Shown piece by piece: positions 7,705 through 63,386 of a stretch of DNA of 64,000 bases. The position numbers and the translations under genes are program-made. The notes beneath the pieces were generated by a model. It worked only from the letters and a program-made list of their open reading frames with translations. It was not told where the DNA came from and did no database searches. Each line of letters opens with the position of its first letter. Within the stretch, counting starts at the first letter, position 1. Source of the DNA: Nemertoderma westbladi (taxonomy: Eukaryota > Animalia > Xenacoelomorpha); the NCBI GenBank assembly GCA_032718475.1, contig JAUCBJ010007585.1, positions 31,265 through 95,264 on the forward strand, given 5' to 3'.

Positions 7705-7739
7705 TATTTCTAATATAATCAAGCTACACACTGCGCCAA

Positions 7740-7934
7740 TATTATGTGTTTGAATAAAGAAAGTTATGTAATTAATTAGTTTACTAACAAACATATATAT
7801 TAGTGGCCTACTTTCCTTCCATCACCTTATATAACTAATCGCACTCAACATTAACTTTAACCAAAGTTCAAACATACTGAGTTAAACCATACAGCTGTAT
7901 TAATAAGAGTCAATATAAATAAATACCCATTACA
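7740..7934 (-). repeat. 5' LTR of compact Gypsy
   Basis: Direct repeat of 3889-4083, adjacent to the PBS. Confidence 0.95.
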
Positions 7935-19797: not shown

Positions 19798-19866
19798 TCG
19801 GTGCGAAAGTGTGGACGTTCAATAAATACATCCCGTATTTATTGAACGTCCACACTTTCGCACCGA
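19798..19866. repeat. Perfect 32-bp inverted repeat with 5-nt loop
   Basis: TCGGTGCGAAAGTGTGGACGTTCAATAAATAC-atccc-GTATTTATTGAACGTCCACACTTTCGCACCGA. Confidence 0.95.
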
Positions 19867-21173
19867 CGGGCAATAGTACTGAAACACGCTAATTTGCCAA
19901 CAGTCACCGGTTTTACTTGCATATAGGGAGAACTTAACTCACGTACGTTGGGGTCTATGAAACAGCATAAACTCATACAAACATCTGTTATTTGAACTAT
20001 GCAATTGTGGATAGTAAACCCCTCCGCTTACCTCAATGATCATGAAAACCAAGAGATCTACCGGTTATTCGTTAGTATTCTCCAACTATTAACATGAATC
20101 CATATGATATAATGACAACAGATTATAACAGCATAAATCAGTATAAAAATGCGGTGTTGCGGAAATATCAGACAGTCAGTATGCGTTGCAGTGAGTATTG
20201 AAGGACGGTTAAATGAATGCAAAAGTAAACGTCTAATAGATTTGCGTTCTGTAATCTTTCTAGCCACTGGTGTTTAAAGAAGAACGTAAACAAAGATAAT
20301 AATAATATCCAATGGCTAGTGATTTCGTAATTTGAGCATCTGAGTTTTTGTAGGAATGTAGGGGAAAGTGTTATACTGAGAATAAACGCTGGAGGGAGTA
20401 AGTTTACATCAGTTCATAAAATACAAAGTTCTTGAGAGTTTTCAAGGGTTTAGAGTACCCAGCGCATTGTGTAAAATGGGGACATTTTGGCCGCAAAAGC
20501 TTTAACACCACTCCCAGAAAATGGGACTTAGGTCTATAAAATATACATAGATTCACAATTTCTTAATATAATAACTACTCTAAACAATCAATCTTTCTTT
20601 CTAGAACGATGTTTACGGAGTTTCTTGAACTTTTGAGCGGTGGTTGTCTTCTTTCCGGCGCTACGAGCCACTTTACTCGGAGGACTATAACTCCTCGGGG
20701 AAGGGTGCAATATATTTGCATCACTTTTGGGACTCAGAACTTTTGGGCGGTGGTTGTCTTCTTCCCGGCGCTACGAGCCACTCGGTGGACTCGGCTACTT
20801 ACTCGGAGGACTATAACTCCTCGGGGAAGGGTTGGGTTTGCGGTCGGTATATCCGCCAGTCGAGGTACCTGGTTGGTCGATGTCCATAGAGGCTGCGCTT
20901 CACTCCTGGGACGGTGTTTCGGTATCAACACGTCTACCAGAGGGTCGAAGGGGTTGAGGTCGTACGATCTTTAGCGCTCGTCTCAAGACCGCAGCTTGGA
21001 CAGGTCCTGCCTTAGTCGTTTGTACGACTGCCGTTGGTAGGCCGTGGGTTATTAGGAACTTCCGAGATTTCACAGTTTTGACTAATAATTAATTGACTAA
21101 CGACTTTCATGGCCAGCTTTCCACTAATACCAACAAATCACTATAAGGTTGAAGAATAACTGCGGTGTAACTG

Positions 21174-22166
21174 TAGTCGAGTCAATCTAACAAAAAACCC
21201 ATAAGTATTTCGCAATCAATCCGAACCACATATTTTGGATTCTATATTACCTTATTAATGACCAAAAAAAAGTCTACAAAATTTTATTTTGCGGATCATA
21301 TGTTTATTCATAGAAATTCTACGTAAATTTGCATAACACAAGCCAAACAAAAGGAACAGTAGGGAAAAGTAAGTAGCAAATTAGTGATGTTCCAGAATAA
21401 TTTAATTAATTTCACAATAAGCTGTGATTCAATGGGAAATTAGTAATATTTACACTGGCGTGTTACACATTAATTGTATATCTCGGAAACTAGAAGTCGC
21501 ATCAAATTTTTAAATATATCAAAAACTTCACGATATATTGAGCTAACTGTTGTAAAAAAATTATACAATTCCACTGCAAGGAAATTTCATAATTTCCATT
21601 AATGTTAGTGAAGATTTTTCACATACTTAAATTATGATTGCTCTATTGATTTTAGGTGTAATTTATTTATTTGTTTTAGTATGAAAACAACAATAGTCTA
21701 TCATATTACAAATAAATTTTTTGGGGATAAGGGTTTTTGAGGTCGATAAATCCGATGAGCGAGGTTACGTCCACCCGTTTAGTAGAGAAGTTGTGTAAAT
21801 AAGCTCTCTGTATTGTACCAGCAAAATTGGTATTAAAAATGGTTAAATTATTACACAAATTTCCGTTGCTCTGGAAACTAAATTGGTAACTATATAGAAG
21901 TGCATACTTCTGTCAATCGATAGTCATTAGAGTAAAGTTGGTCTGTACCAAATTTTGAGAAAATCCCACCAATAGACCCCTTGTTGGTATGTAAAATCCA
22001 TGTTGCTAAGGAAAGAAACAGGAAATTGAAGGAGATCCGCATATATATTTTTATAGACTTTTTTGGGGGTATTAACAAGGCAATGTAGAATAAAAAAAAA
22101 ATGGTTTGGATGAATTGCGAATTTGTTATGGGTTGACCCCCTTTTTCGGCTAGATTGACTCGCCTA
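21174..22166. mobile_element. Non-autonomous TIR DNA transposon (993 bp), TAG...CTA ends, 3-bp TSD CTG (Academ- or Harbinger-like)
   Basis: Imperfect TIRs TAGTCGAGTCAATCTA / TAGATTGACTCGCCTA; the empty site GGTGTAACTGGTGTAATATCGC is present at ~18564 and ~57064. Confidence 0.85.
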
Positions 22167-23914
22167 CTGGTGTAATATCGCTGAAGACACTTTTTTCAAA
22201 CACTTGTAGCTAAAGAATAAAAGCAAAAATAATAATTCTGGCTCACCCAGGAAGGAGGAGGGAGGTGAAACTCTCTATGTTTCAAATTTCATGCAATCTC
22301 ATAAATATTTGTACTGAATAACGACACTATATTCCAGGACATGGAGTAGTTTTTGTGACTTACAATTATATGAGAAAGTAAACCCATTCTCTTCACATAG
22401 GCATATAGGAGGGAGGCCCCATGTATATAACATACATGGATACATACATACATTCATTTTCTGATGACACCCCCCCCCCCCCCCCAGATTTTTCTAGAAA
22501 TCTTCATCATATTGCAAGAAATTTGAAACACAACTATTTCCACTCACCGTCGATGACCCCATGAAGCCGGAATTTTCAATTTTGCCTTGAAAGTTTTTTA
22601 TAAGCGTTTTATAAAAGTGTCTTTTGCGAAATCGCACACTCCCTATCTCCACATTTGTCGTAATTTTTTCATATCATTAAAAAGGGAACAGTTCCGCGCG
22701 TTCCAACAATTTCGTTGTTTTTTTTCAACAAATTTTCGAAGCATTCTGTCAGTTTTTTTATAAATGTTCTAGAAAGTACATTCAGTGTTCTAGAACTTTG
22801 AATAAAAGTTCTAGAACATTTTAATTATTAATTTTCGAGAATATTATTTTCTTTAAAAAAGAAAATTATTTAAAAAATTGTTAAATTTTATTATTTTTTA
22901 TGCTATGTTGCCTGTTTTTTTTTCTATTGATAAGAGTTCTAGAACATTATTAAATGTTCTAGACCATGTACCAAATTAAAAAATAAATAATATAAATATA
23001 CGATGAACGTTCCAGTTGCGACAAATGTAACGAATACGCCGACAAATTCGCGTCAAAGGTGATCGGATATCTCTGGCGACGCCAGATTCGTAATTAATGA
23101 AAGAATGCCTTCATGGAATTTATACACTCAATTAAAGTACAATACAAATTTGAAAAATAACAATAAGTTGTTTTTAAAAATAAATAAAATTACGTATATA
23201 ACTCAGAAACCAAATAAAAAATAATAGCTATAGATATAAATTCCTAGCTATAATTATAAATTATTACTTTGAGTACATAAAATTACTAGATATATATGTT
23301 AATTATACAAAAAAGTGTTAAAAAAACAAAAAATATAATTTTTTAATAATGTTCTAGAACAAAAAATAATATGTTCTAGAACATTATTTAACAAAAAATA
23401 ATTCGAAATATCCTACAATAATTCACACTAACATTACAAAGTAGTAGCAGTAAATTATACACATTTTAGTGCAAAATGAAAATGTTGGCACGGGCGGAAC
23501 TATAGCCATTAAAAAGTCATATTCAATATATCGATTACGTAGCTATTCATACATAAACAAAATGTTCCAGAACATTGTGTATTTATTAAATATAATAAAT
23601 GGCCTTCAACGAACAATACTTCTTGCAATCTTTGAACGCCTATCTCAGCTGTTTCTCAACGAAATTCAAATATTGTTACATATTTGGACTCCTTGCAACG
23701 CAACCTTTTTAATGATATGAAAAAATTACGACTAATATGAAGAATGTCCACGATATGGAGGGTGCAATAAAGCGATAAGAGAATAGCTTATCGCTTACCT
23801 CTGATCGCTTGTCGCTTATCTCTTATGTCTCAATTGTGAACCTAACCAATAACCAACCAACTAACCAATACTGTACTTACCATGTACCTGTAATCTGATG
23901 CCTCTTATCATAAA

Positions 23915-26842
23915 TTGGCTGCGAGGCAAAATGAGGTATCAAATGATGGTGTAGGATTGAATGATCAGTTTTTAAGAATGAAAATGATGTATTGGGGCTT
24001 CGATATGAATAATTGTATATCTAAATTACAAGAGATCGAATATAAATTAACACTGTTCAACAAAAATTATACAACCTTGCTAACGTGTATTGTAGAACAA
24101 ATCAATTCACTGTGGATCGCCGACATGACTAGGGAGGCAAAACTGAATAAATTACATAAAACAATGGAGATGATGTTAAAAAATCAAATTGATACATTAC
24201 AGGAACATATTAATTGTTACCTTTTTTACACTTTTCTACCCAGTGAGCAGATAAACCGCTTACAAAGTTTATATGACCTAGGCAGTAAACTCGACAAATA
24301 CATCGAAATATGGATAAGTGAAATTTTAGAGGAAGGGGCTGGTCTATACAGTTTTGATGGAAAATCTTTTATTTTACCTGTAAACAGTCAATCATCCGTC
24401 GTCCAACATGAGCTAGACACGAGCATTATGCAAGTAGAAGGACCAGCAGGCAGACCCCCCTATACCATTACACCAGCCACAAACATTCCATATATGTTCC
24501 AGGAAGAACATCAAACCCCCCAGTGCCACTCCATTCCATATGATATGATCCTTATGCAAACACCAGAAATGCACCAAACTCATTATATGCAACCGGGATC
24601 GCTTCAAACTCAACATGTGCAACCGGGACTGGAACAAAGTCAACCATTCCACCAGCCACCATTATTTCAAGGCACTAAACAACCAGGACCATCTCAAAGG
24701 GACTATATGCAACTGGAATTTCTTCAAACTCAACATATGCAAGCGGTAGTGGAACAAAGTCCAACATTCAAACAGCTACCATTAATCCCTGGCACTAAAC
24801 AACCTAGACCATCTCAAAGGGACCATATGCATCTGGAATTTCTTCAAACTCAACATATGCAAAAGGGAGTGGAACTAAGACCAACATTCCACCAGCTACC
24901 ATTAATCCCTGGCACTAAACAACCTGGACCATCTCAAAGGGACCATATGCAACTGGAATTTCTTCAAACTCAACATATGCAAGCGGTAGTGGAACAAAGT
25001 CCAACATTCAAACAGCTACCATTAATCCCTGGCACTAAACAACCTAGACCATCTCAAAGGGACCATATGCATCTGGAATTTCTTCAAACTCAACATATGC
25101 AACAGGGAGTGGAACAAAGTCCAACATTCCACCAGCCACCATTATTTCAAGGTACTAAACAACCTGGACCATCTCAAAGGGACCATATGCAACTGGAATT
25201 TCTTCAAACTCAACATATGCAACCGGGGGCAGTACAAAGTCAAACATTCCACCAGCCACCATTATTTCAAGGTACTAAACAACCTGGACCATCTCAAAGG
25301 GACCATATGCAACTGGAATTTCTTCAAACTCAACATATGCAACCGGGGGCGGTACAAAGTCAAACATTCCACCAGCCACCATTATTTCAAGGTACTAAAC
25401 AACCTGGACCATCTCAAAGGGACCATATGCCACTGGAATTTCTTCAAACTCAACATAAGCAACCGGTAGTGGAACAAAGTCCAACATTCCACCAACTACC
25501 TTTAATCCACAGTACTATGCAACCTGGACATGATATTCATAAATTGTCTGAAAAGTTTTCCAACAGTTTGTTATTAACTCCTCGGGAAGATCTTGGAAAT
25601 GCAAGACTAAAGCATACACAGGTTGACCGTAACGTACAGCAATTAGCAACTACATTGGAAGAGGGGTGCATTTTGAAAGAGGACGAAACATACTCTGGTC
25701 GGTGTGTAGATGTTAGACAAAATTTGGGGTTTATAGAAACTACAAATCTGAGTAAAACAATTGTACGTTGTCATACATCAAATCTCCATAGCAATGGATA
25801 CCGGCTGATTTTGAAGTTGGGGGATGATGTTATTTTTCAGTGCAAACCTAAATTGGATAGAAATATACCGTATATAGCTGCTACATGGGTTAGTGTTCAA
25901 GGAAAGGATGCATGTTGCTCAGGACGAATCTATGATAAACCTTTCCTAGAGGAGGACACAACTTATGAAGGTTTTTGTATATTCTATTCTGAAATAAATA
26001 GATATGGGTATATAACTCCAATAGATGAAAACAAAAAAGAACTTTGTGACTGCCACACTATATACTTTATACAAAGTAAAATCCACATTAATAAGTATCG
26101 TTGGATGAGGAATATAGAAGGCACCCATTTTCTATTCCAGTTTAAATATAATACAAATGGAAAAAGATGTGCCACCTGTGTTACATTAGCTACTGATACC
26201 TCATGTGAGGTAGCTCGAAATATTAACATGTATCAAAATAATGCTGCAGAAAATCATGTCCAAGGGACTGTGAATGATGACATCCTAAAGGAAGGTAAAA
26301 CATACACCGGGCGAGTGCAATTAGTAGGTAGTGATACTTACTGGTTTACTATACCGGAAATAAATGGGGTGGAACTTTGTGAATGTTTTTCTATGTTTAC
26401 TGGACGTGGAAACATACATATTAATGGGCATCGAATGACACTGGAGAACAATAAACCTGTTAAATTTTTGTTCAACACTAAATATCGAAACAAAGCCTCA
26501 ATAGTTACAGTGTCAGGGGACTTTAATTGTAGGGCTGCGCAGTTTGTCAATAAAGGCAGTGGTGAGGTTGCTAATACCTCATTGGATGTTACAAAAACAT
26601 ATAATGGTCTATTTTATCATCATTATAATGAATACTATCCAGAATATTATGGAATTATAATACCGATAATTGTTGAGGATGAATTATTGTGTTCTTGTTA
26701 CAACATATATGTTCATTGCAAAAATACCAAACTTTATAATGAGCTAGTAGAGGTGGACAATGAAAAGCATCCCGTTAACTTTCAGTTTCAATATGAAGAA
26801 GCGGGAAATGAAGGGGTTGCAACATGGATGAAATTTATTTGA
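23915..26842 (+). CDS. Intronless ORF: helical N-terminus, ~8x 40-aa Q/P/H-rich repeat, four divergent cold-shock-domain-like units; putative RNA-binding protein
   Basis: 2.9-kb open frame. Starts at TTG where the paralog has ATG; first in-frame ATG at 23978. Four C-terminal units begin TYxG and two carry GFI/GYI. AATAAA lies ~25 nt after the stop. Confidence 0.75.
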   Translation: MAARQNEVSNDGVGLNDQFLRMKMMYWGFDMNNCISKLQEIEYKLTLFNKNYTTLLTCIVEQINSLWIADMTREAKLNKLHKTMEMMLKNQIDTLQEHINCYLFYTFLPSEQINRLQSLYDLGSKLDKYIEIWISEILEEGAGLYSFDGKSFILPVNSQSSVVQHELDTSIMQVEGPAGRPPYTITPATNIPYMFQEEHQTPQCHSIPYDMILMQTPEMHQTHYMQPGSLQTQHVQPGLEQSQPFHQPPLFQGTKQPGPSQRDYMQLEFLQTQHMQAVVEQSPTFKQLPLIPGTKQPRPSQRDHMHLEFLQTQHMQKGVELRPTFHQLPLIPGTKQPGPSQRDHMQLEFLQTQHMQAVVEQSPTFKQLPLIPGTKQPRPSQRDHMHLEFLQTQHMQQGVEQSPTFHQPPLFQGTKQPGPSQRDHMQLEFLQTQHMQPGAVQSQTFHQPPLFQGTKQPGPSQRDHMQLEFLQTQHMQPGAVQSQTFHQPPLFQGTKQPGPSQRDHMPLEFLQTQHKQPVVEQSPTFHQLPLIHSTMQPGHDIHKLSEKFSNSLLLTPREDLGNARLKHTQVDRNVQQLATTLEEGCILKEDETYSGRCVDVRQNLGFIETTNLSKTIVRCHTSNLHSNGYRLILKLGDDVIFQCKPKLDRNIPYIAATWVSVQGKDACCSGRIYDKPFLEEDTTYEGFCIFYSEINRYGYITPIDENKKELCDCHTIYFIQSKIHINKYRWMRNIEGTHFLFQFKYNTNGKRCATCVTLATDTSCEVARNINMYQNNAAENHVQGTVNDDILKEGKTYTGRVQLVGSDTYWFTIPEINGVELCECFSMFTGRGNIHINGHRMTLENNKPVKFLFNTKYRNKASIVTVSGDFNCRAAQFVNKGSGEVANTSLDVTKTYNGLFYHHYNEYYPEYYGIIIPIIVEDELLCSCYNIYVHCKNTKLYNELVEVDNEKHPVNFQFQYEEAGNEGVATWMKFI
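24580..25530 (+). repeat. ~8 copies of a 120-bp (40-aa) coding tandem repeat
   Basis: Anchors at 24602, 24722 ... 25442; unit LQTQHMQPGAVQSQTFHQPPLFQGTKQPGPSQRDHMQLEF. Confidence 0.95.
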
Positions 26843-26982
26843 TTAGATAATGATGTAACATTATGTAATAATAAATTCGGTAGTTTTTTACATCATCAAC
26901 ATTTTCATTACAATTATTTAATTATTAAGTATTAAGTAATAATTATTAAGTAATTTAATAATATTTAATTTTTTGGGATATT

Positions 26983-28866
26983 TTATTCCTTGCTCCTTTC
27001 CTGGTGAGTAAGCCTCCCGCAGTAATCGCAGCCGAGTACCAACGTGTCCCGCCCCAAGTCGTCCTTCGCCCCAAGCGATCTCCTCGGTCTATAGAGTCGC
27101 TGGTAAGCAAACTTCTGGATGTTAACGTCCCTGTCCATGTCTATCTCCTCGTCTCGCCCGGGCATTGTCTCCCTGAATACTACCCGTGGTGCCATTCCCG
27201 GTTGCTCGCCCAACCTGATGGTGCTCCCCGCGAAATCCATCGCTGGCTCCTCATGCACCCAGGCCCGCTTGCCGGGTCTATCCCAGAAGGCCCTCGCCCC
27301 GCTGGCCATCACCACTCTCCCGCCAACCCAGTCCGTGTCTGAGTGGCCGATTCTCCGGATGGGCGGCATCTCTCCGAACTCATCGTCATCCTCGTCCTCC
27401 TCTGGGAGTGGCTCCAAACCAGGTATCCCGGTGGATCCACTGTGTCCCTTCCCACCTTGGCCCTCGCCCGTGACCCTCCATCCTACCAGTTCCCCTGGCC
27501 TTCTCTTCGCGAAATCGCCCTCTGCGCCCGCTGGTATGGGCATCTCCTGCAATCCCGATGTTGACTGTTTCGGTGATCCTTCCGTCCACCCCAATTCTCG
27601 CCCTAGAGACTCGCCCGAGCTCCCTGATGTCCAGTGTAAATCGTCCAAGGCCGCCTGGGCCTCAAACCCATAGCCCTCTCCTCTAGCCTCCGCCTCTCTT
27701 TCGTCTGCCTCCCTCCTTTCTCGTCTAGCTATTTCTTCCAATCGCTTCGCCTCTTGTCTATCCGCCTCTAGCTGCTCCCACCTATGATATGGTGTATCCA
27801 CCTCCCTGTCTACTAGATATCGGCAGTTGTAGTATACCGACTCGCCCTTCAGCCCCGGGTGGTCGACCAGACCCTCGAAAGCCACTTTGAAGGCTCTTCT
27901 GTAGTTCAGGGGTGATCCCGATAGCAGAAATGCCGTTGGCTCTCTTTCGATAACCACGGCCATGAATAGGTTTAATAAACCTATCATTATCCAGTCCTCC
28001 TGCAGGATATATCGCTTCTGATATATCTTTATTGCTCCTCTCCAGAATTGATACACCTCTTGTTTCCCCGGCCTCGCTCCCCACTTCAGCGAGTTCGCCA
28101 ACTCCGCTCCGTACTCCTCCCTGAATTTACCCCAGTCCATTGGCTTGTGGCATACGAGCCCCATTAGCTGACCCATCGCCACCGCTCCACAATGGCCCGT
28201 GTTCTCTACTAGTCCCAACCTGGCTGGCCCCATCATAGCCATATAGACCGTTTGCATGTCCAGGAGGTTGGGGGTCTCCGGACCGATGATCCTCTCCGCA
28301 TCGTTGCGGATCGCCAATCCCACCTTTATCGTCGACTTCTCTCTTACTACGTTCTGCACTGCCCTTGGCAACTGGTTTAACTTCGGCCCATTCTTCTTCC
28401 CATACATTCCCAGATCGAACAGGAAGATGTCACCATTTGGCGCGGCCAAATGCAGAAGTATGGTTCTGGCCGACCCTCTTCTCGAACCCTCCTCATCTTC
28501 CACGGTCCCCTCGTCGTCCAGGACCATGTATCCTCCCCTGCTGATGGACTCTACGAACCTCTTCCAGTCCTTTTTCGGTGGTTCCCTCGGATACTTCGGT
28601 ATCCCGAACTTCGCCTCGTCTCCCTTTACCACATAGTGGAAATGCTCGAAGATCACGTTGTTTAGCGATGGCGTCCCGTAGGTCCCGACCAGCCGCCTCT
28701 CGTGCACCTCCCTGAAATGGTCCTGTAGTGCTCACTCTTTGTGACCCTTCTCCAACCGCTCGTAGTATCCCCTCGTCTTCTCCTCCGGATGCCTCTCGGT
28801 GAAGTCTACTAGTATTTATTTTCCTCCCATCTCCGCCTTTCTCTTTCTAACAAGTTTCTCCGCCAT
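26983..28866 (-). CDS. Extra BEL/Pao ORF with DEDDy/WRN-like 3'-5' exonuclease domain and acidic Gly-rich tail; two early in-frame stops, 3' truncated
   Basis: ExoI VLDDEG, LLHLA...FLFDL...LP, ExoII KVGLAIRNDAERI, LLDM, ExoIII-like WRGAIKIYQKRYILQED. ATG at 28866 is in frame with the 574-codon open stretch 26983..28707. Confidence 0.8.
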
Positions 28867-29269
28867 TTCGAACGCTCCCGATCGCTCACCTATAAGGTGG
28901 TACCTTACCAAGGCTCAATATAAGTGAGTGATGTAGTTAGGATGGTCTGTTTGGTCCGATAATGGCCTATCTCTCTCTGAACGCTAGGTTATTGCCGAAT
29001 TTTCTTATTTTACTCCCTAAAAGTACCAAATTTCCTAAATTCCCTAATTTTGTCAGTTACTTTTATTATATTCTAGAATATTTTATCTACTGTTACTATA
29101 ATTTGTTGAATTTTGATTTTTTATATTCTGCAACTGTGCTATTAATATTTATAACGGATTATTTATTTTGATAATCCCTATTCTGACCTATTCTACGGGC
29201 TGTGCAGTACAGTAGTATGTCCCGTGCGGCCTACACGATCTGTCCTGGTGTACCCACGTGCCCCCCTCT

Positions 29270-29850
29270 AGCTCCTCACTACTAACTCTACTAATTCTCT
29301 TACTCTACTAACTCTTACTAACATTCTAACTAACTTCTACTAACTCTTAATAACACACTAACTAACTCCTACTAACGGTACTATGTACCCTCCTACTACT
29401 AACCAACTCCACTAGCGGTACTGCACGTACCCTCTTACTACTAACTAACCCCCCTAATGGTACTATGTACCCTCTTACTACTAACTAACTCCACTAACGG
29501 TACTGCACGTACCCTCTTACTACTAACTAACTCCCATAATGGTACTATGTACCCTCTTACTAATAACTAACTCCTCTAACGGTACTACACGTACCCTCTT
29601 ACTACTAACTAACACCTCTACTAACGGTACTACACGTACCCTCTTACCAACTCTTCTACTAACAGTACTAAGTATCCTCTTACTACTAACTCTCTAACTA
29701 ATGGTACTACATACCCTCTTACTACTCTTACTAACTCTCTAACTAACGGTACTACGTACCCTCTTACTACTCTTACTAACTCTCTAACTAACTTCTATCT
29801 GCCTACTTACTTACTACGTACTTACTATATACTATTACTTTCCTTTCTCT
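29270..29850. repeat. Degenerate TACTAAC-rich tandem array in the BEL/Pao spacer
   Basis: Recurring ~39-41-bp unit CTCTTACTACTAACTAACTCCACTAACGGTACTGCACGTACC; strongly G-poor on the plus strand. Confidence 0.85.
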
Positions 29851-29974
29851 TACTCTCTTTCTATTATTTTATTATTTTACTATTTTTTATATTTTTATAT
29901 TTTGTGTGGGAAGGGCGTCTCGCCCTCAATCCCACCCCCCCCCCCCCCCAGTCCTACACTTGGACGACTAAACT

Positions 29975-32900
29975 CTATGGTGTCCCTTTTAGCAGGCAAC
30001 ATTTACCTACAGCCCTCCTGTAGGTCTTCCTGTCTTTCGCTCCTATCTTACCCCCTATTCGCACTTCCACCGATCGGACTCTTCCGTCCTCGTCGGAGTA
30101 AGTATCCACTACCCTTGCTAGCCTCCATTGATTGTTGATGATGGTGTCATCCGCGACGATCACCAAATCACCCTTCTTTAACTCTCTAGTGGTATTTCTC
30201 CACTTGCTCCTCCTATGTAGTGTAGGTAGGTATTCCTCGACCCACCTCCTCCAGTACTCTGCGCTTATCGCCTGAGCGACTTTCCAACTCTGTCGGGAGT
30301 GTATGTCATCTGGGTCTACACCCCGCATGTCAATGGTCGCCGGCCTCTCCATTAGAAAGTGACTGGGTGTCAGCACATCTAGTGATTCTGGGTCGTCATT
30401 TTCTGGGTATAGCGGTCTGCTATTAATGATACTCTCGCACTTAGCTAGCATCGTCCTTAGTACATCTTCTGTCACCATGTGGGTGTTCATCAACTTCGTT
30501 ATCAGACGCTTGGAACTACCCACGAGTCTCTCGACGCATCCTAAAGTATGCAGAGCATACGGCGTCCTCCTCTCCCACTTCACCTGTTGAGGATGTCCAA
30601 GGCCTCCGCCAGCGCGTTCTCCGCGCCCACAAAGTTGGTTCCATTATCGGAGTAGATCACTGCAATCGTCCCACCTTTTCGGTCTCTGAATCTCTCTAGG
30701 GCATTGATAAATGCCGATGCGCTATTCCTACCGCCCGCGTGTTGTTACATACGAAGATGATGCTGTAGTGCTTCTCCGTGTGCCGCATCACCCTGATCGT
30801 TATCGGCCCGAACATATCTACACCGCAGTGTGTGAATGGCGGGTCATGCTGTCTCACCCTACTGGCCGGTAATGGCGCCATCTCCTGTACGGCCCGCTCC
30901 TTCCTCGTCCGTCGGCAGGTCTGGCACTGCCCCACTACCGCCTTCACCTTCTTTCTTAGCTGCGTGATCCAGAAGGTCCTCCGTATCTCCGTGAGGGTCT
31001 GGTTGGTGCCCCCGTGCAATATCAACTTGTGGGAGTCCCAAATGATCTGGTGGACTATCGGCGACCTATTTGGGATGATAATGGGTTTTGGTGGGATGAT
31101 GGGGCTGTTGTTATTTAGCACTGTGGAGTTCATTACTAGGATCCCATCGTCATTTAGTTGTGGCGACAGCGTGATGAGCTCGCAGTCCCGACGAAGATGT
31201 TGTTGTTTACTGACGTGCCCCACTTCGTCGCCGTAGTACCTTTTCTGTTTGTACCGAATCACGGCCTTGGCTGCTCCCTCCAGATCGATGTTGGGTTTCC
31301 TCTTGGCGTCCTTGCCAATTCCCTTGAGGAAATCCCCGAAGGCTCTCCAGTACGCTACCAACTTCTTGGTCTTGTACCAACTTGAGCTGTAGCTGAGGAG
31401 TTTATCCGTTGGGATATCGCATGGTTCTTCTGATTTTGGTTGCACCTCCCTGATCTCCCTCGCCATCTGACTATTTATCTCTTCACCTTCTGAGTCTTCT
31501 CCCTCTTCCTCTGGTGGTACTTCCTCCGAGCCCGGGTCCACCTTCTTCATTGGTGGCCAGGCCATCCTATCGTTCAGGAACTGTGGCCCGTGATGCCACA
31601 ATACTTCATTCTTTAAGAAAGTATGGCGTGCCACGCCCCTCGATAACAAGTCCGCTGGGTTCTCGTCTGTTGGGCAGTAGTGCCACCTTTCCAACTCAGT
31701 CGTTGCCCTTATTTTGTCCACCCTATTTGCGACGAATATAGGGTATCTTGTCTTCTCATTATGTAGCCAACCAAGCACTACCATGGAGTCCGTCCAGTAG
31801 TGTGTTTCCACTATGTTGGGAATAGTGTCCATCAAGTAGGCTGTGGCCCTTACTCCTAATCTTGCAGCTGTCAACTCAAGTTTCGGGACCGATGCTGAAT
31901 CTGGCGGCGTCGACTTTGCTTTGCTGAATGCAAGTCTGGGCTTATGAGCCCCCTCTCGTTGTACTAGGTAGAGTGCCGCTCCGTATGCTTCCAATGACGC
32001 ATCGGAGAACATGTGTAGATCCAGATCCGTCATGTCCCCATCCGGGAAATACACGCGTGGCATGCTGTACATCCCCATCTGTTCTAAACTCTCCATCCAC
32101 TTACTCCACTACGTGCTGATTTCTTCCGGGACCTCTGTATCCCACTCGTCCTTTAGCTTATATACTTTCTTAAGTATCTGTTTCCCCGTAACTAATAGTG
32201 GGGATGCTAGGCCTAGGGGATCGTATATCCTTGCTATGTACAATACATAGCCCCTCTTTGTGTGGATGTCCGCGCCCTCCTGGCTCAGCTGATACTTGAA
32301 CTCGTCTGTCTCCCGGTTCCACACGATCCCCTGTGCCTTCTGCTGAGACTCTACTCTTTTGTTCGCCATGTCCTGTCCCTTGGTGTTGTGGGTTATCCAT
32401 GGTCGACTCTGGCCTCCTCTCCTCTATGGCTTTCATAAACTCCTCTGAGCTGGATTGGAACTTGGTCAGGTTAAACCCGGATCCCTTCAGGATGTCGCGA
32501 ACCTCGCGCCCTGTATCCAGTAGTTCTTTAACCGTGTTTCCAGACTCCTTTCCGTCGTCTACATAGAAGCCGCGTCGAATCATATCGACGGCTTTGGCGC
32601 TATACTTCTCCTCTTTCCCCTCTACTGTATCCCTTACAGCCACAGTCATCGTAAATGAGGACGACTTGGCCCCCATATTCTGCACCACCATCTTGTACAT
32701 CGGTATTGTCGACGGTTCCTCGTCGCCGTTGTACCATAGGAAGCGCTGGCTGTCACTATCCTCCTCCGTCACACGGACTTGGTTAAACATGCCTTCAATG
32801 TCGCAGGTGAAGGCGTGCCTCCCGTTTCTGAATCTCAGTAGGACCTCGATTCCCGAGTTATAGATATTGGGGCCTTCTAGCAGATAGTCGTTTAGGCACT

Positions 32901-33904
32901 TGCCGTTGGTTTTAGCCGATGCGTCAACTACCATCCGCAATTTACCTTTCTTTGGATCTAGAGCCACGTGAAGTGGCAGGTAGTAGGTCCTGTCCGTGTT
33001 CGGTTCGTCGACCGGTAACTCCACGGCCCATCCTTTCTCGACATACTTCCTTATCGTCTTATGAATGTACTCATCCTTCTCGGGGCTCCGCTTCAGCGTT
33101 TGCTTCAGTTTACGAAGCCTCGTGAGTACCATTCCCTTGTTATCCGGTAGCGGTAATTTTGGTTGTTTCCACACCATCCCTATGGTGTACCGCCCCTCGT
33201 CGCATCTCATCGACTCCTTCACACTTTGCATCGCTTGTTTATCTTCTACCGAGGTTCCGACCCCGGTCTCTTTTAGTCCCTCAAAGTCCTGTCTGAGTAG
33301 TCTCCTGAGCTGCTCCTCCGCTCCTTCATCTTCCATCTCCCTCATAGTTCCCGCGAACATGCACCCTGATGTCTCCGACATCCTAAACGGAATCTTGGTT
33401 CTTAATTGGGCCGCTTAGCGTCCACCCGAATGGTGTTAAAATTGCCATCGGGTCACGCTGTCTGTCTTCGCCGAAGACCGTCTGCATTCTCTCGTGGGCC
33501 GTCGGGCAGTCCATTCCCACTATAATGGATACCTTCCTAACGTCCACCTCTGGTATCGAGAAATCGATGCTGTCCAGGAATCTGTATTGTTCGACCTCGA
33601 TGTTGGTTGGTCGCCTGGCGTTGATATTTATCGATTCTATCACCTGGATGGGGTCGATGGTCGCCCCATAATCGCATCCCGGTGCTATCGCTGCTATCCC
33701 GCACCGTCCCGTCCTCATCTCCAGGACCTCATCTTTGCTGGAGATGGTTGTTACCGCCATCCTACTTGGCCTCGTCTTTAGTCCTATCTCTTCGGCCACC
33801 CAATTCTCGACCAATGTGAAGGCTGCTCCACTGTCGACCAGCATCAGCGTGGTTACTGATCGACCGCCTTCTCCGATCACCCTCACTGGTACTACCCCGC
33901 CCAA
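29975..33904 (-). pseudogene. pol: BEL/Pao pol copy 1 (frameshifted)
   Basis: ORF pieces 33383..33904 (PR), 32170..33381 (RT), 32109..32369, 30696..32096 (RH, IN N-terminus), 29975..30583 (IN C-terminus). Confidence 0.92.
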
Positions 33905-36089
33905 GTAGTACCGTTCCTCTCTTCTTCGCCCCTACGGTGCTTGTTGCCATTGTCTGCCCTTTGCCTTGACTGAACTTAATTGGTGTTTCTTTGCATTGAT
34001 CAGCTCTGTGTCCGCCCGCCACACATCGATGACAGATTCCACTCTTTCTTGCATATTCTACCTGATCTTGTTTGGGCAACGCTTGCCAATATCTGCAGTT
34101 CATGGTCTGATGAAGTGCGTTCGTGTGCAATTGGCATTTGTTGTTTGGATTATAGCCATCCTTATACAGTGCGCTGCGTATTGCACTTACGTTTGTACCT
34201 AGATCCCTACTGTTCTTATTGTTTGGGTTCGGCCTACTGGGCGTGTTGGGGTTATGTTTGTTTGTGTTGTTATTTTGCCCCTGTCCGCTCCATGGTGTGG
34301 CCCTACCCCCGGCTACATGTGGACTAGCAGTCCCCTGCGTCGCCGCGTATGGCAGCGATTGTCTAAGCTTTGGCAATGCGTTTGCCGTGTTGTATTCTGG
34401 TTTCGGCCTGTTATATTCAGTCTTTGGCCCCTTCCCCAGACTATCCTCGCTATAGACTGGGTCTGTGATCAATTCGGCTTCGTAGTTGAGGAAGCTCTAC
34501 ATTTCCTCTAGGCCCGGTTCCGCACCCTTCTTCTCCTGGGTGGAGAAAGCAATTTTTCTCCACTTATTGTGCAGCCAGATCTGCAGTGCCTGCGCTATCG
34601 TGGTGATGTTATTAGTTGCGTTGAGTTCGTATGGCGCGTCTAGCGTCTTCAACACGATTAGCGCCTTCTCGACTTTGTTCGCAAACGTCTTTATGCTAAC
34701 GGGGTTATCCTGTAGGCCACCCGATGTTATACCCCTCAGGGTCTGCCGTATGATCTTGGCCGGGTGCCCGTACTCCCTGTCTAGAGCCCGCCATGCTGTC
34801 GTGAAGCCACCCTCGATGCCCTGGTATTGCCTCACGATGTCGTATGCTGGGCCTCCTGTATATACCTGTAGATATTTTAGGCACTCCGCCTGCGTCAGGT
34901 TCTTGGTTAATATCTTGTTGCTGTACATGCGCCAAAATTGCAAGTATTCTTCCGGCCTACTTCTGTCGAATTTAAATGGCTCTACGGGTGGTAGCTCGAT
35001 TCTTGTCTTAAGTGCATCGATTAATGTAGCCATTCCCATCGCCTGTGCTTCCAATGGGTTCGAAGGATGCTGTACAGATTCTCCCATTGGGTGCGGTCTG
35101 CCGGTCCTGTCTGTTGCCCTCCGTTGTGTCGGGTATGTCATTGGGGGTAACGGCCCCCTCCATATTTCCGTGTCGCAAGATCTGTTCTCGTCCAGGGGAT
35201 TCGATGTTCTTATTCCTGTTTGAGTATATTGTTGATATTGTAATGGGGGAATGTCACCCTGCCCCCCCCCCCCCCCCCCACCGGTGGTATGTTTGGTACT
35301 GGGGTTGATGTTAATATATTGGGGCCCATACACCTATCCGCAATAACTCTCCCCTCCCCTGGATATATGTTATGTCCCTGCATGATATAGTGATACTGCT
35401 CTGCTGGTACCGGTATAGGCCTATCCACTTCTGGCCTATCTACCGGTATATACTCCGCGACTTCCGGGTTTAATCCTATCGCCTACACTATCTCTCCCAG
35501 CATGGCCTATAGTATGTGCAGTAAGGCCTACAGTATGTCCTGCAGTCTGTATGTGTCCCTCCGGATCGAAGTTTAACCTTCTCGAATAATCCAAGAAGTC
35601 CTCCCCGAGACTACCGTACCCTCGATCGGCAGCTATATCCCATCGGGAAGTTTCTCTTCGATCCCCTCTCCTATTCTCGTCCTCGTGCCGGTACGCCCTG
35701 TACCCCTCTCTCGGCGTATAGTACACCTCGCCAGGTCGCGTCTCTCCGGGACGATGGCAATCTCCCGGAGTTCGACCCCACCGACTCTCCAACTCCATCT
35801 CGAATCACGAATCTCCAACGGCTCGCTATCCGTCCTCGCTCTCCTGGGCTCGACGTCTCGTCGCTCGCCCTTTCGCGATGCCAACCTCTCTCTCTCTACC
35901 CGGTCGCACGCTGCTGGGGATATTCGTAATCCCCCTACTATTCTCTGTTGCCGGGTGCTGCGGTTCACCTAATTCGCCCTGCGCATTATCCGCCGACGTC
36001 TGTGGGGCGCTCTCTGCACCCCCCCTCTCACCGCTAATCTCTCTTTGTGGGGCTCCTGTAGCCCCCCCCCCCCCCCCCCCCCGGGCCAA
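33762..36089 (-). pseudogene. gag: BEL/Pao gag copy 1 (frameshifted)
   Basis: IELPPVEPFKFD...EYLQFW...CLKYLQVYTGGPA...AWRALDREYG (Pao gag core) plus Cys/His knuckles. Confidence 0.88.
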
Positions 36090-37109: not shown

Positions 37110-37660
37110 CGTATGTACAACGTGTCTTAATCACCCCCTTTCGGAAGTGATATAACTCGTCTCTCCCCCATCTCACCCCCCACTTGAGTGGATTCACAAG
37201 TTCCATCCGGTATTCCTCTTGGAACTTGTTCCACTCCATCGGCTTGTGGCACGCGAGTCCCATCAACTGAGCCATCGCCACAACTCCTTATTGTCCCATG
37301 TTATCCACCAATCCTAATCCATCCGGTTTCATCATAGCCATGTCCAGAAGATTTGGAGTGCCTGGTCCAATAATCCTCTCCGCGTCGAGGCGTATCGCCG
37401 ATCCAATCTCGATCGTACTCTTTGACCTTACTAGCTTCTACACCGTATCTAGTAGGCGGTTCTACTATGGCCAGCTCTTCTTATCATAGGTCGCTAGGTC
37501 AAACAGAAAAATATCGCCGTTCAGCGCCACTAAATGCAGCAATATAGTTCTACCCGATCCTACTGACCCCTTTCTTGACCCACCGTCATCCTCTACTGTC
37601 CCCACGTCATGCAGGACCATATATCCACCCCTCTCCACAAAATATGAAAAATTTCTACAC
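37110..37660 (-). pseudogene. Decayed second copy of the BEL/Pao exonuclease-like ORF
   Basis: RGGYMVLHDVGTVEDDGG...RTILLHLVALNGDIFLFDL...AIRLDAERIIGPGTPNLLDM...LMGLACHKPMEWNKF aligns with the copy-1 ORF; contains in-frame stops. Confidence 0.9.
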
Positions 37661-38124
37661 TAGCTTCTCCATCATCACGATTCTCCTCTCTCACCAGACT
37701 GGTGGTGCCTTAGAAAGGCTCAGTAGGGCAAGGGATAGCTAAGTATGGTCTTAATTAGTTTAAATCAGTGATGGCCTACCTCCTATCTGCATTATGCCAA
37801 TGTTTCGTAGAAATATTCCCCTTTATGTGCCAATTAACCCCTGATTTTTCAGTGCTGGGTTCCTCAACTAAAGTGCTATTACTCTACCTACTACTCAATT
37901 ACTATGTAAGTAATTCATCTCTACCTGTCTACAGAAAAGACTAGCTACAATTTTCATATTATTGTACTAGCTTCCTACCAGACAACTTTCTGGCTCTGTA
38001 ACAATGCTCTAACTCTACACTATGGGCTATGCACTACAGTAGTCTAGTTCATGCGGCCGCCTACACGGTCTACTATACTACTATGCCTACATACCCCCTT
38101 CAACTCCTCACATGGTGCCCTTAG

Positions 38125-39982: not shown

Positions 39983-41274
39983 TTAATGCCCACTATAGTA
40001 CGTATTACTTATTAATATTGATTGGTCTCATTGACCCAGCATGTTTGGTATTTATTGCATATGTTGGCACATTGTGCCCATCAGACGTACGCAATATATA
40101 CCCTTCCAATCCTCACTATGGTACCATGTATCCTTCTACTGATATTGGTCCCATTGACCTGGCATTTGGTGCGTATATAAACTAGGTACGTTGTTACATT
40201 CATAACCGTCCGACGTACGTAATTATAACTACCTACACCTAAATATTATGTACGTTGGTACGTCCATACCCATCAGACGTACATAATGTCTACCTAAAGT
40301 GTACATTGGTACTACTACTTACTCATTTTATTTTTTATTTTATTATTTTATTTTATGTGGGAAGGGCGTCTCACCCTCATTCCCACCCCCATCAGTCCAA
40401 TATATTGGATGACTCCAATAATTAGGGCGCTCCCTCCAATAGGCAACACTTCCCTACTGCCCTCCTGTAGGTCTTCCTATCTTTGGCCCCTATCTTTCCT
40501 CCGATCCTCACTTCCACGGATCTAATCTTTCCGTCTTCGCCGGGGTAGCATATAGTAGTAGAATGCCCTCTGCTGTCATAGAAATCTACATCCTGGAGAC
40601 TCACCATTTCTTCATAAAATTCATCAATTCAATTCAATTCAATGTTTATTTTTACCCTTCAAATAATAATTCAAAATAACAATAACTCAGTATAAAATAG
40701 AAATTAACATGAATACATACTCTATATGGTAAGTTCTATATAAATGGGTACTGGAGAACAGCCAAATAGCAGGGCTAGTAAACGGCTGCCCACCAGGAGG
40801 ATGGGATTATATGAAATGTAAAAATATGTAACATTTGATAGATTGGACGTAGTAAGTAGTAGTTTGAAGTAATAGTATACTGTAGGGTGTTGCAGATGCA
40901 GAATAGAGAGGTGAAGAAGATGGCATATAGATAGATAGATACTGTAGGTAAGGTAGAGTAGAAAGTAGATAGATAATGTAGGCAAGGTAGAGTAGAAGGT
41001 AGATAGATAAGAATAGGAAGGATAGGGACTATGTATTAGGATTGCAATAGATTTAGCAATAGATTTATGGTAATTAGTTGGGGCAGACTGCGATTTTTTA
41101 ACATTTTTTGTTTATACTGTAGGTCTATATATATAAATGTATTTAGTAATACATAAATTTAATTTGGCGAATGACAGCGAGTTATTTTAATAGATGGAGA
41201 TTTAAACAGCAAATATTTTAGTAGACGAATTTGTAATATAATTAAATTAAATAAAATTAAAGGGTTAAAGTTTA

Positions 41275-44879: not shown

Positions 44880-47800
44880 AGAATTTGTTAGGTCGTCCTT
44901 TTGTAGTTGAATGCTACCCTTTCATTGGTAGGTTTCATATATATACATCTGGCCCACTGACATCACATCTGGCCATATGGCCCCTCACTGCCCCCCCCCC
45001 CCCCACTCTTTCCCTGTCTCAGGTCCGACCTTCCCACTATCTCACAGAATCCGTCATCATCTTTTGGCGCAGAATGCCACCCTTCATTTCTTCATCACTT
45101 GGTGGTAGAATGCCACCCTTCAATTCATCGTCACTGGTAGATTCCACCTCTTCTGGCCTCCCCCTCAATATGTGCACCGGCGTTAAAGCCCCCGATGACC
45201 CTTGGTCATCATTCGGTACGCAAAATGGTTTAATATATAATGCCCCCTCTCACTCTGGCAGCCCCGGGTTCAACACGTCTCCTCTAACTTTCCCATTCCC
45301 ATCATCATTTATCCTCGACTCCTCTACCTTTGGATCAACCCTGTTATGTTTCTTCTTTTTCCTCCTTATCTTCTTGTTCAATCCCCCTGGTATCGGTATA
45401 CTTCTCAGTTGGATCAGCATCTCTTCTGGGCATCTCTCTGGATATCTCGCTGTCAACTCTTCCCCATCCCCGTACTGATACTTGTTAGGAACGTCCGTGT
45501 TTCATCCCATTGCCTCTAGGTCCTGTGCATTGAACCCATTCTCCTTCACCTACTCTCTTGCTGTTGCTACTCCTCCTGACTCCTCTATCTGCGGTATTTC
45601 TCTGGACTCATCCTCCACTCTTTCCACTATGCATGGTTCCAGATCCATACCCGCCCCTGACTCCTGGTATCCTTCCCCGGGCCGCTTCTCATTTGGGTCC
45701 TCCCAATTGCCCATCCTTGACTTCTGCTCAGGCCGCTTCCCATATGGGACCTCCCCATCACCCATCTTTGGCTTCTGCTCTATGTCCTCAATGGTACCGG
45801 ACAGCATGTATCCTGATGATTCGAACACGCTAAACATGATCCTCGTCTTTATTGGGCCATCCGAAAGGCATGAGAATGGCCACCGGGTCTCATTCCTTCT
45901 CGTTGGCAAAAATGGTTTGCAGCCTCTCATGGGCCGTCTGACAGCCCATGCCGACTATAAGAGACACTTTCGGGACATCTAGTTCGTGTACGGAGAAGTC
46001 GATGCCGTCCAGATACCAGTATTGTTTGATCTCGATCTTTGTAGGTCGCCTGGCATTGATATTGATCGAATCTATTATTTGGATGGGTTCGATGGTAGCC
46101 CCATAGTCGCACCCTGTTGTTATCACTCTGATTTCACACCATTCCATCCTCATCTTCATGACCTCGTATTTGCTCGATATCATGGTCACCGCCATCTTAC
46201 TTGGTCTGGTCTTTAATCCTATCTTCTCGGCCACCCAACTCTCCGTTAGCTTAAACGCTGCTCCACTATCTTCCAACATTAGTGTTGTAACCGATAGTCC
46301 GTTTTCTCCAATTATCCTCACCAGTACTACTCCGTCTGTTCTCTTCCTCCTTACTCCAGTGGTGCTCGTCGCCATCGTCTGGCCTCCAGTTCCATCAGTA
46401 TCGGCATACTTGATCGGTTGTTCTTGACATTCATCCTTCTTGTGTCCTCCTACTGCGCATCAGTGTCACAGTCCAAATTTTCTAGTGTAAGCTATTCAGT
46501 CTTGTTTAAGTAACGCCTGCCAAGGCTTACAGTTTATGGTCTTGTGCATCCCGTTTCTATGCAATTGACATTTGTAATTGGGGTTGTAGCATTCCTCATA
46601 CCGTATCGCCTTCAGATTCATGTTGAGTGGTTTAGTGTTATGGTTGTTTGGACTCGGCCTATTTGGGGTGTTAGTAGCTACTGCTGTTGTTGTTTTGTCA
46701 CTGTCCCTGCCATCGCGTGGCTCTATTCCCAGGGCTCTGTGGACTTGTAGTAACGACTGCCTCACTTTTGGAAGTGCATCCGCTGCACTATGTTCCAGTT
46801 TAGATCAGCTGTATTCCGTTTTCGGTACTTTGCCTAGACTGTCCTCACTATAGACTGGATCAATTATTAACTCCACCTCGTAGTTAAGGAAGTTCGACAT
46901 CTCGTTTCGACATCTGGCTCCGTACCCTTCTTCTCTCGAGTGGAGAAAGCGATCTTTCTCCATTTGTGCAGTGCCTGAGCTATGGTCATGATGTTATTCG
47001 ATGCATTGAGTTCGTATGGTGGATCTAGGGTCTTTAAGCTATCAGCACCTTCTCTACTTTGTTAGCGAAGGTCTTGATGCTAACAGGGTTATCTGCGAGT
47101 CCACCTGATGTTATTCCCCTTAAGGTTTGTCGAATAATCTTCGCAGGATAGCTAAATTCCCTGTCCAGGGCTCTCCACGCGGTTGTAAATCCTCCTTCAA
47201 TTCCTTGGTATTGCCTCACGATGTTGTAGGCTGGCCCACCTGTATAGACTTGTAGATATTTAAGGCACTCCGTCTGTGTGAGATTTTTCGTCAAAATCTC
47301 ATTGCTGTACATCTTCCAGAACTATAGATATTCTTCCGGCTTGCTACCATCAAACTTAAAAGGCTCCACTGGTGGCAGCTCTATTCTTGTTTTCAGCGAG
47401 TCGATGAGTGTTGCTATTCCCATCGCTTGAATTTCCAGCGCACTCGACGGTACGGATGCAGGATCCTTCAATGTTGATTGTGCTTTGCCTCTCGGGTTCG
47501 TCGACTTTCCCTGAGTAGGATATATCATCGGGGGTAACAGTCCCCTCCATATCTCGCATGATCTATTTGGATCTGGGGGGGTCGCGATTTTTATTTTTGG
47601 TTGAGTGTATTGCGGATACAGTAATGGAGGAATGTCACCCTGCCCCCCCCCCCCCCCCTCACCGATGTTATATTTGGCACTGGGGTAGATGTCATTATAT
47701 TGGGGCCCATACACCTATCTGCAATACCCCCACCCCCCTCCCCTGGGTATGTGTTATATCCCAGCATATTATAGTCATACTGGTGTGCAGGTACCGGTAT

Positions 47801-49045
47801 AGGCCTAGCAGGTTTCTGCCTACTCACTGGTATGTATGCCGCGACCTCCGTGTCCAATCCCGGCATTCGCGCTACCCCATCGCCTAAACTATCTCTCCCA
47901 ACATGGCCTATAGTATGTGCAGCAAGACCTACATAATGTCCTGCAGTCTTTCTGTGTTCCTCCGGTTCGAAGTTTGATCTTTTTGAATATTCCGAGAAGT
48001 CATTCCCACGACTACAATATTGTCTAGCTGATACGCCAGATCTATCTCTAATACCCTTCTAGCTTTCGCGGAGGATGTAGCGGACTTTTCAGTTGAGATG
48101 GACTCCTATCGCCTGTTTGTTCTACTAATTTTGACATGCTTGGTAGCATTTCTACTAACCAACGACACCGAATCTTTGAGGTTAACCTCGGGTTCAGCGT
48201 CATGCAGATACGCCCATCCCACTAACTTAATTCCCCGTGCATCCATTAGCTAAGGCCCTATATACACTACATCAGGTGGCATTATCTCGGATCACCACAA
48301 TTCGAACAGTTCTGTGGCGACCCCCCTCGCCCTCTCGCTAGTTCCCCCTGCCCAAATCGGACTAGGTTGTGGAAATGTTTATTGCACTCACTGAGTCTCT
48401 GGTTCAACTTGGGCTGGTCTACCTTTCCTCCAGTCTTAGCATCATTGAGTAGCTTCCTTGTCGCGTTGTACCCTCGTCGTAGGCGATTGCTCATCCCAAA
48501 ATCTTCCTCCTGAACCTGACCTTCTCTCCTTGTCTGGCGTCATACCGTCAGCCCCACCATTGCTGTTTTGGTGGGCTGCTCACTGGAAGCTCACTCGGTG
48601 GGTAGCTACTGGTATGCCGGCGACTCCGGTACTTCTCTCGCTGCTCTCATCTTGTGCTGACTCGCGTCCCTCTTCTCCTTGTACGTGGCCGCTCTCCTCT
48701 TCGACAACTGAACCGTCTCTCCTCGGCGAATCCAGTGTGGCAGGCCAGTACCGCCTCATCGCTGCCTCCCGAATTGTTTGGTCTCTATCGCTCAGGGTGC
48801 GCGGCGGCGGGCTTCCTTCTCCCACTGGACCTTGGGGCGGTTGTTCGCTCATCTCGTTGTTTCATTGGCATGTCATCGTCACAGTTTATTTGTTCTTCGC
48901 GTCTCACTTGAAGTCGTAGTTTAGACTAAGCTAGGTTTCAACTGTGACGGGATCCTCAAGTTGGCGAGGGAATCCCGACCGGTGTGTTTGCTTTTGGGTT
49001 ATACGCTTCGCCGCATCCGTTGGCTGCTGAAAGGCTTATGGTACT

Positions 49046-63356: not shown

Positions 63357-63386
63357 AGTTCTAAATAGGTGTTGTGCAGCTCCCCC

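Follow-up and report, generated by a model that had tools for sequence, protein, structure and literature searches.

A BEL/Pao retrotransposon of Nemertoderma westbladi with a predicted DEDDy-type exonuclease gene behind its integrase

The window, by which we mean the whole 64,000-nucleotide stretch of DNA analysed, holds a damaged BEL/Pao retrotransposon with an additional reading frame (ORF3) behind the integrase, and the protein encoded there is very probably derived from the DEDDy-type 3'-5' exonucleases. Within a multi-copy BEL/Pao family, ORF3 would stand as a third gene, occupying the slot after the integrase and encoding a predicted DEDDy-fold protein, and we hold with high confidence that it is carried by the element.

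The ORF reported in the preliminary description is present as claimed: on the minus strand it starts with the ATG at 28866, and two early stops interrupt the frame at codon 17 (28818-28816) and codon 45 (28734-28732). Its stated distance of about 1.1 kb from the integrase stop (29977-29975, same strand) measures 1,109 nt. The stop-free frame that follows (28731-26986, with its terminating stop at 26985-26983) comes to 582 codons, so that the long open frame described earlier is real and only its length, given as 574 codons, needs correction; the longest frame found by chance, over 2000 composition-preserving shuffles, was 233 codons. The motifs quoted earlier were all found in ORF3 and, in the numbering of the 582-aa frame used throughout, are D72-x-E74, KVGLAIRND144, LLD158M, Y241ILQE245D246 and C568xxC-x4-H576. 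The features of ORF3 in this copy of the element (copy 1) are these:

26983..28866, minus strand: copy 1 ORF3, with 627 codons when counted from the ATG; two early stops precede 582 open codons
27952..28566, minus strand: domain resembling DEDDy 3'-5' exonucleases, spanning roughly aa 56-260 in the 582-aa numbering
28518-28510, minus strand: ExoI D72/E74, from profile and motif positions
28302-28300, minus strand: ExoII D144, from profile and motif positions
28260-28258, minus strand: D158, from profile and motif positions
28011-27997, minus strand: candidate ExoIII Y241-x3-E245, register set by eye only
27679..27783, minus strand: strongly charged stretch C-terminal to the domain, with a Gly/acidic tail behind it, from the sequence
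27004..27030, minus strand: incomplete zinc knuckle C-x2-C-x4-H, with the fourth ligand missing at the apparent cut-off point

Copy 1 has kept three of the four catalytic acids. The charged stretch behind the exonuclease domain is probably helical, and the zinc knuckle lies about 300 residues away from the domain; the gene was probably cut off at about 26992. Adjoining the cut-off end, on the plus strand at 23894-26842, is a 982-codon open frame in which 40-aa Gln/Pro-rich repeats (120-bp units) form an array and the C-terminal part contains Cys; it has no significant Pfam family, and a shorter relative lies at 11435-13359.

The rest of copy 1 is laid out as follows:

33762..36060, minus strand: gag, with DUF1759 and a Cys/His knuckle region; its 5' start and the 5' LTR are unrecognisable
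29975..33931, minus strand: BEL/Pao pol, broken by stops and frameshifts
33931-33383, minus strand: protease, part of pol
33414-32170, minus strand: RT, part of pol
32108-30696, minus strand: Peptidase_A17 and Integrase_H2C2, part of pol
30643-29975, minus strand: integrase (IN) end and DUF5641, part of pol
28867..29974, minus strand: spacer from IN stop to ORF3 ATG, 1.1 kb, non-coding

A tandem array of ten 42-bp units occupies 29357-29771 within the spacer. The domains come in the order DUF1759, Asp_protease_2, RVT_1 (weak, E 0.004), Peptidase_A17, Integrase_H2C2 and DUF5641, with E values of 2.3e-21 for Peptidase_A17, 1.5e-11 for DUF1759 and 1.4e-25 for DUF5641, all above the curated cut-offs; we take DUF1759 and DUF5641 to be BEL/Pao markers. 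This is the order of the Belpaoviridae, Gag and then PR-RT-RH-IN, and together with the Pao-type family models it upholds the BEL/Pao identity assigned to the element at the outset.

Family searches of the usual kind do not recognise the ORF3 domain. An HMM comparison with PF01612 had been proposed as a check and did not succeed: Pfam reported no family for ORF3 up to E 10, the PF01612 cut-off not being reached, nor did NCBIfam or PHROGs, and a sequence search of the PDB gave chance rows only, even at E 10. None of the 1,102 candidates in a homologue search (candidate lengths 320-1019 only) matched, and the two matches returned by a search of 1.84 billion proteins were rejected as repeat artefacts, TPR and cadherin-like. 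Viral contigs yielded no relatives with ORF3, the two-copy alignment or RH-IN as query, and the phages and plasmids searched yielded nothing meaningful; in metagenomes the ORF3 query was without a match and the RH-IN query had one, of 35 aa on a 1.3-kb contig. A feature search of the ESM Atlas gave PF01612 clusters as 25 of 30 matches in one run and as all 30 named matches in a second (scores 0.93-0.94, one cluster being named Werner syndrome-like), on a scale where, per the tool, shuffled proteins score 0.9 in 4-10 of 100 cases.

Statistical support for the domain comes from a custom DEDDy profile of 19 rows, made up of RNase D, NrnC-like, PolA exo and giant-virus Egl-like sequences and omitting one sequence without the ExoIII stretch. 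Against this profile ORF3 scored 17.5 bits over aa 56-171 (E 1.4e-7 as a single comparison, about E 0.003 at Pfam scale by our own arithmetic) and ranked first among 1,298 targets; the top of 1000 shuffles reached 3.7 bits and the top of 295 other frames of the window 2.2. D72, E74, D144 and D158 align with conserved columns, the D-x-E of ExoI (D72, E74) with invariant ones, and the ExoII aspartate D144 was aligned in two alignments and is also kept in the second copy of the element described below. The signal varies with the choice of rows: a 12-row profile of bacterial and phage sequences only gave 11.9 bits (0 of 500 shuffles as high), two random 12-row subsets 1.9 and 6.7, the first profile, of eight mostly giant-virus rows, 1.2 (2 of 1000 shuffles as high) and a seven-row giant-virus, Egl-like profile -1.2, the worst score, while hhalign of two 2-row alignments returned a probability of 0.2%. 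In the DnaQ-like proteins of Mollivirus, Pandoravirus and Medusavirus the exonuclease domain lies at the C-terminus, and the best solved-structure match of the Mollivirus protein is Drosophila Egalitarian (E 3e-19).

The reading of ORF3 as having ExoI, ExoII and ExoIII in the order of a DEDDy exonuclease stands for the first two motifs; the ExoIII half of the profile scores -2.8 bits, a value equalled by 313 of 1000 shuffles. Y241-x3-E245 falls on the YAAxD of the profile rows in one alignment, with YILQE instead of a canonical Y-x3-D, and the gap-free register shows neither Y nor D. The distance from ExoII to the tyrosine is 97 residues in ORF3, as against 71 in EXD2 (D171, Y242) and 83 in Egl (D621, Y704), where the accessible portions of the sources give ExoIII as Y242/D246 (PMC6648332) and Y704/D708 (bioRxiv 10.1101/2025.08.03.668247), respectively. 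Unlike the host DEDDy exonucleases, to which it is only 16-20% identical, ORF3 has E at the fourth acid position. Since ExoIII is both weak and non-canonical, we call the domain DEDDy-derived, with uncertain catalysis, rather than a canonical member of the group.

Structure prediction, also suggested in the preliminary description, bears the reading out in part. The single-sequence model was unusable (pLDDT 34.5), and a model guided by an alignment, with eight Egl-like DEDDy rows steering it, reached pLDDT 47.7. With this low-confidence, DEDDy-steered model, Foldseek ranked EXD2 first (E 3e-5) and so did VIA (Z 6.8, rmsd 4.4, 109 residues aligned, N-terminal half only), followed by Rrp6, Nibbler and RNase D; all four chains with Z of at least 5 are DEDDy, in a comparison that the steering rows make partly circular. 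The fold matches include Egl and Exd1 as well, ranked below EXD2 despite the Egl-like rows. With EXD2/WRN-exo, Nibbler (Mut-7), Rrp6, RNase D, Egalitarian and Exd1, ORF3 appears to share the ExoI D-x-E, the ExoII D and, in this low-confidence model, the N-terminal beta-sheet core. The RNase D of Trypanosoma brucei (PDB 7c42, entered there under the name CCHC-type domain-containing protein), which is among the sequence and fold matches, likewise combines a DEDD domain with a CCHC element; it is, however, a cellular enzyme, and the knuckle of ORF3 is incomplete and some 300 residues from the domain. An HRDC domain was not matched in a single pairwise comparison with a stretch of E. coli RNase D, a weak test.

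That the exonuclease gene belongs to the element, as had been proposed, is supported by a second colinear copy, by selection and by codon usage. A more decayed relative within the window (copy 2), diverged from copy 1 to about 70% identity, repeats the succession of integrase end, spacer, ATG and exonuclease. Its parts are:

45779..48870, minus strand: gag-protease of copy 2; across 48015-45779 its nucleotides are 70% identical to those of copy 1
39986..40547, minus strand: integrase C-terminus, first G tract and spacer of copy 2, from sequence comparison
37126..38119, minus strand: remainder of the spacer, ATG and exonuclease of copy 2, from sequence comparison

The integrase end (40547-40425) has 85% aa identity to copy 1 over 41 aa, the ATG lies at 37675/37672, and the exonuclease fragment (37656-37126; 62% aa identity) contains four stops and is missing about 290 nt of its N-terminal part. 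Both ExoI acids are gone, with H-x-V in their place, and stops are denser in the exonuclease, at 4 in 174 codons, than in gag, at 1 in 223. Between the IN end and the ORF, copy 2 is interrupted only by a 1.9-kb insertion (38125-39982), which has perfect 12-bp inverted ends, flanks of TTAA and CTAA and a 28-bp tandem array (38693-39584), and which we take to resemble a non-autonomous piggyBac-type element. Beyond the protease, at 44960-45780 on the minus strand, copy 2 continues for about 800 nt in a sequence that is purine-rich, codes for acidic residues and does not resemble the RT of copy 1.

The dN/dS comparison between copies that had been recommended gave 0.11 for the exonuclease, 0.10 for gag, 0.14 for protease and 0.03 for the IN end, all purifying. 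Because dS is near saturation, raw pN/pS is the safer measure, and bootstrapping puts it at 0.21-0.38 in the exonuclease as compared with 0.15-0.28 in gag. The exonuclease differences between the copies are distributed 32/40/97 over the three codon positions. ORF3 is under purifying selection like gag, and divergence of gag, protease, IN and ORF3 under such selection is not what a duplication of dead DNA would produce. The codon usage of ORF3 correlates with that of BEL pol (r 0.78) and BEL gag (r 0.57), as against r -0.06 to -0.48 for five other ORF sets of the window. The copy 2 fragment was also considered as a 5' LTR of copy 1 and ruled out, its 34% divergence being concentrated at third positions; the presence of its own IN end upstream speaks against this as well.

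Other repeats fill much of the surroundings. Directly upstream of copy 2 gag is a Gypsy-type element (49046-54240, minus strand), whose LTRs (49046-49371 and 53928-54240) are 91% identical and whose flanks show no obvious target-site duplication; another Gypsy-type gag-pol, in three open pieces, lies at 4079-7821 on the minus strand. Two long open LINE ORF2 frames (endonuclease and RT) are found at 41907-44921 and 60291-63386, both on the minus strand, the former followed by a tandem array of twelve 49-bp units (41274-41880). An AT-rich repeat family with internal palindromes occurs twice, about 38.5 kb apart, at 17000-23800 and 55700-59600, with 95-98% identity.

Contigs from four public runs (at most three samples), compared over 25700-29800, indicate how widespread the gene is. 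Relatives of ORF3 were found in thousands of contigs at 80-100% identity, and the summed depth of runs X1-X3, which is not equated with copy number, is 85-527 in neighbouring DNA and 5,639-61,396 in the ORF bins of 27070-28850; the ORF3-bearing family is large and diverged. Among the 40 of 740 contig differences that were listed, 28 fall in the ORF, 16 of them at third codon positions (p 0.008). Nearly all contig depth differs from copy 1 inside the second stop codon (codon 45), so this stop looks private to copy 1; the first stop (codon 17) does not figure among the differences listed. One X5 contig spans 28560-28981 without a gap, with 59 differences; another matches ORF3 down to 26992 and then runs on with 74 other letters, thus leaving copy 1 at the site of the fourth knuckle ligand, from which we take the present stop, on the evidence of this one contig, to be probably a truncation. 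One contig skips 1,289 nt of ORF3 including the exonuclease domain, and with the decayed copy 2 it indicates that copies without a working gene exist.

The place of ORF3 inside the element is deduced rather than seen, since no LTR pair survives: no pair of direct repeats surrounds either copy in the window, both being cut by other insertions (copy 1 at its 3' end, copy 2 by LINE and Gypsy elements). No primer-binding site for tRNA-Arg or tRNA-Gly was seen by eye upstream of either gag, and the window has no tRNA genes. A GC-richer stretch with CCAAT-like boxes at 54240-54830, upstream of the Gypsy 5' LTR, matches nothing else in the window and may be what is left of copy 2's 5' LTR. What does survive in both copies is a pair of G tracts, one directly behind the IN stop and the other some 400 nt ahead of the ATG, and TG or CG comes within a few bases after each of them:

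29949-29933 and 29266-29257, minus strand: candidate polypurine tracts (G-rich) of copy 1, both upstream of ORF3
38098-38090, minus strand: second G tract of copy 2, upstream of the ORF3 ATG

Because, according to the ICTV, the 3' LTR follows immediately on the polypurine tract (PMC8742986), these tracts raise the possibility that ORF3 sits in an unusually long LTR (in U3) and not in an internal env slot, an arrangement compatible with any function. If either tract is the polypurine tract, the LTR holding ORF3 would measure at least 2.3-3 kb, against 0.2-1.2 kb as described (PMC8742986); G runs are present in gag and upstream of gag in both copies too, and the DNA behind IN has no match to that upstream of either gag, where both 5' ends are damaged. 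We regard the long LTR as rather doubtful. A 3' LTR ending before ORF3 is disfavoured by the linkage data. Both the missing LTRs and target-site duplications around the two copies and the nested insertions that fill the region would also suit an ORF3 that came from another repeat or a host gene and landed behind the integrase by chance or segmental duplication; but the order and spacer landmarks are kept in two copies 30% apart, purifying selection is seen in gag, protease, IN and ORF3 alike, and ORF3 has the codon usage of pol, all of which makes such an origin quite improbable.

Among retroelements of other animals, the rotifer lineages Juno, Vesta, TelKA and Mag are Gypsy-type, whereas the carrier here is BEL/Pao. 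These four lineages appear in the accessible text of Rodriguez, Kenefick and Arkhipova 2017 (PMC5408684), which reports a DEDDy ORF3 in bdelloid Juno1/2 and Vesta2/5, shared with Terminons, with at least two acquisitions, a DEED motif and a function left untested; the accessible parts of later reviews repeat the observation (PMC5718144, PMC6431247, PMC6338049). The preliminary description, which knew of no BEL/Pao case, thus took the gene to be newer than it is: LTR retrotransposons with a DEDDy ORF3, and the same ideas about its function, are already on record (PMC5408684). As that text describes it, the rotifer gene resembles ours in being a separate, non-env, DEDDy/DnaQ-like ORF downstream of pol, with no transmembrane segment and with one acid changed. 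It differs in its DEED motif, called RNase D-like in the text description, where ORF3 here keeps the ExoII D and has E in ExoIII; ORF3 here also has about 630 codons with a long tail, and its nearest matches are EXD2/WRN-like. What is new here appears to be the BEL/Pao host lineage, together with a WRN/EXD2-like source of ORF3 that is probably separate from that of the rotifer gene.

For BEL/Pao itself the third gene is described by the ICTV only as env-like (PMC8742986). De la Chaux and Wagner likewise give only env-like extras in the accessible main text, where the word 'exonuclease' occurs 0 times (PMC3118150), as it does in the accessible text of the Troyka paper. Our literature search found no BEL/Pao exonuclease case within a coverage that left Repbase and most subscription papers outside, and supplements may hold unannotated cases. 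The element is like other Belpaoviridae in its gag-PR-RT-RH-IN order with an extra gene behind the integrase, and unlike the env-bearing ones in that ORF3 is without env features, with a best 19-residue hydropathy of 1.59, 0 NxS/T sequons and 5 Cys in 627 codons. The hydropathy, glycosylation-site and Cys counts rule out an env identity.

As to function, we infer every step beyond the domain call. The ORF3 protein would be made from its own subgenomic mRNA, and the C-terminal zinc knuckle and charged helix may anchor it on RNA or an RNP; cutting would be weak, altered or absent, because ExoIII is non-canonical. The protein would then bind or trim RNA 3' ends and so blunt small-RNA silencing of the element, by interfering with the 3' maturation or stability of silencing RNAs. 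An action on RNA ends, through binding or trimming, seems to us reasonably probable, and we lean towards ORF3 being an element-borne, RNA-end-acting protein. Host silencing RNA (small RNAs) as the target is a tentative choice, and we are doubtful of the full scenario, in which a BEL/Pao family independently captured a WRN/EXD2/Nibbler-type exonuclease, possibly in a long LTR, that suppresses piRNA/siRNA 3'-end maturation. Available portions of two sources are consistent with the proposal: EXO domains bind RNA apart from catalysis in Egl, Exd1 and Exu (bioRxiv 10.1101/2025.08.03.668247), and for the rotifer ORF3 an involvement in silencing has been brought up (PMC5408684).

The rotifer authors themselves favoured processing of the element's own RNA, as the accessible text has it (PMC5408684), and ORF3 may correspondingly trim the 3' end of its element's genomic RNA, the primer or the cDNA ends in or near the particle. 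The intact ExoI and ExoII of copy 1 would suit this, and the zinc knuckle could direct the protein to the RNP, as the CCHC element of RNase D 7c42 invites one to suppose; yet ORF3 stands as an ORF of its own, for which no way into the particle is apparent, its ExoIII is non-canonical, and the genes described for BEL/Pao elements are gag, pol and no more than an env in addition (PMC8742986), so that an end-trimming step is not generally needed. We think it possible but would not expect it. The altered ExoIII, YILQE against the YAAxD of the profile rows, would fit a catalytically dead RNA-binding adaptor that routes element RNA, for instance to the germline, as Egalitarian does with localised mRNAs. 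Egl too has a charged helix behind its domain and, like Exd1, turned up as a fold match, and the function of Egl survives mutation of all five catalytic residues, according to the accessible part of the report (bioRxiv 10.1101/2025.08.03.668247). Against an adaptor, copy 1 keeps three of the four acids, the Egl-like profile scored worst, and EXD2 outranks Egl and Exd1 although Egl-like rows steered the model; on balance we judge it unlikely. Proofreading for the reverse transcriptase, put forward in the preliminary description for cDNA, is highly improbable. The DnaQ fold does include the PolA proofreading domain, which is among the profile rows, and reverse transcriptases are not known to proofread, but no finding speaks for such a role: ORF3 is not fused to pol, its ExoIII is altered, its closest matches are the stand-alone EXD2, Rrp6, Nibbler and RNase D, and there is no sign of higher copying fidelity.

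With ORF3, nuclease-type third genes extend from Gypsy-type elements to BEL/Pao, where only env-like extras have been described, and that such genes arise again in retroelement groups not related to one another suggests an advantage under selection that these groups share. Since the domain was missed by standard family searches, such genes may be widely unannotated. The rotifer work left open whether DEDDy proteins encoded by elements cut at all, and which RNAs they act on, those of the element or the silencing RNAs of the host; the exonuclease domain of copy 1, being stop-free, is directly assayable. If the protein is indeed a captured suppressor of piRNA/siRNA maturation, it would represent a retrotransposon-encoded counter-defence that makes use of the very fold found in the trimming enzymes of its host.
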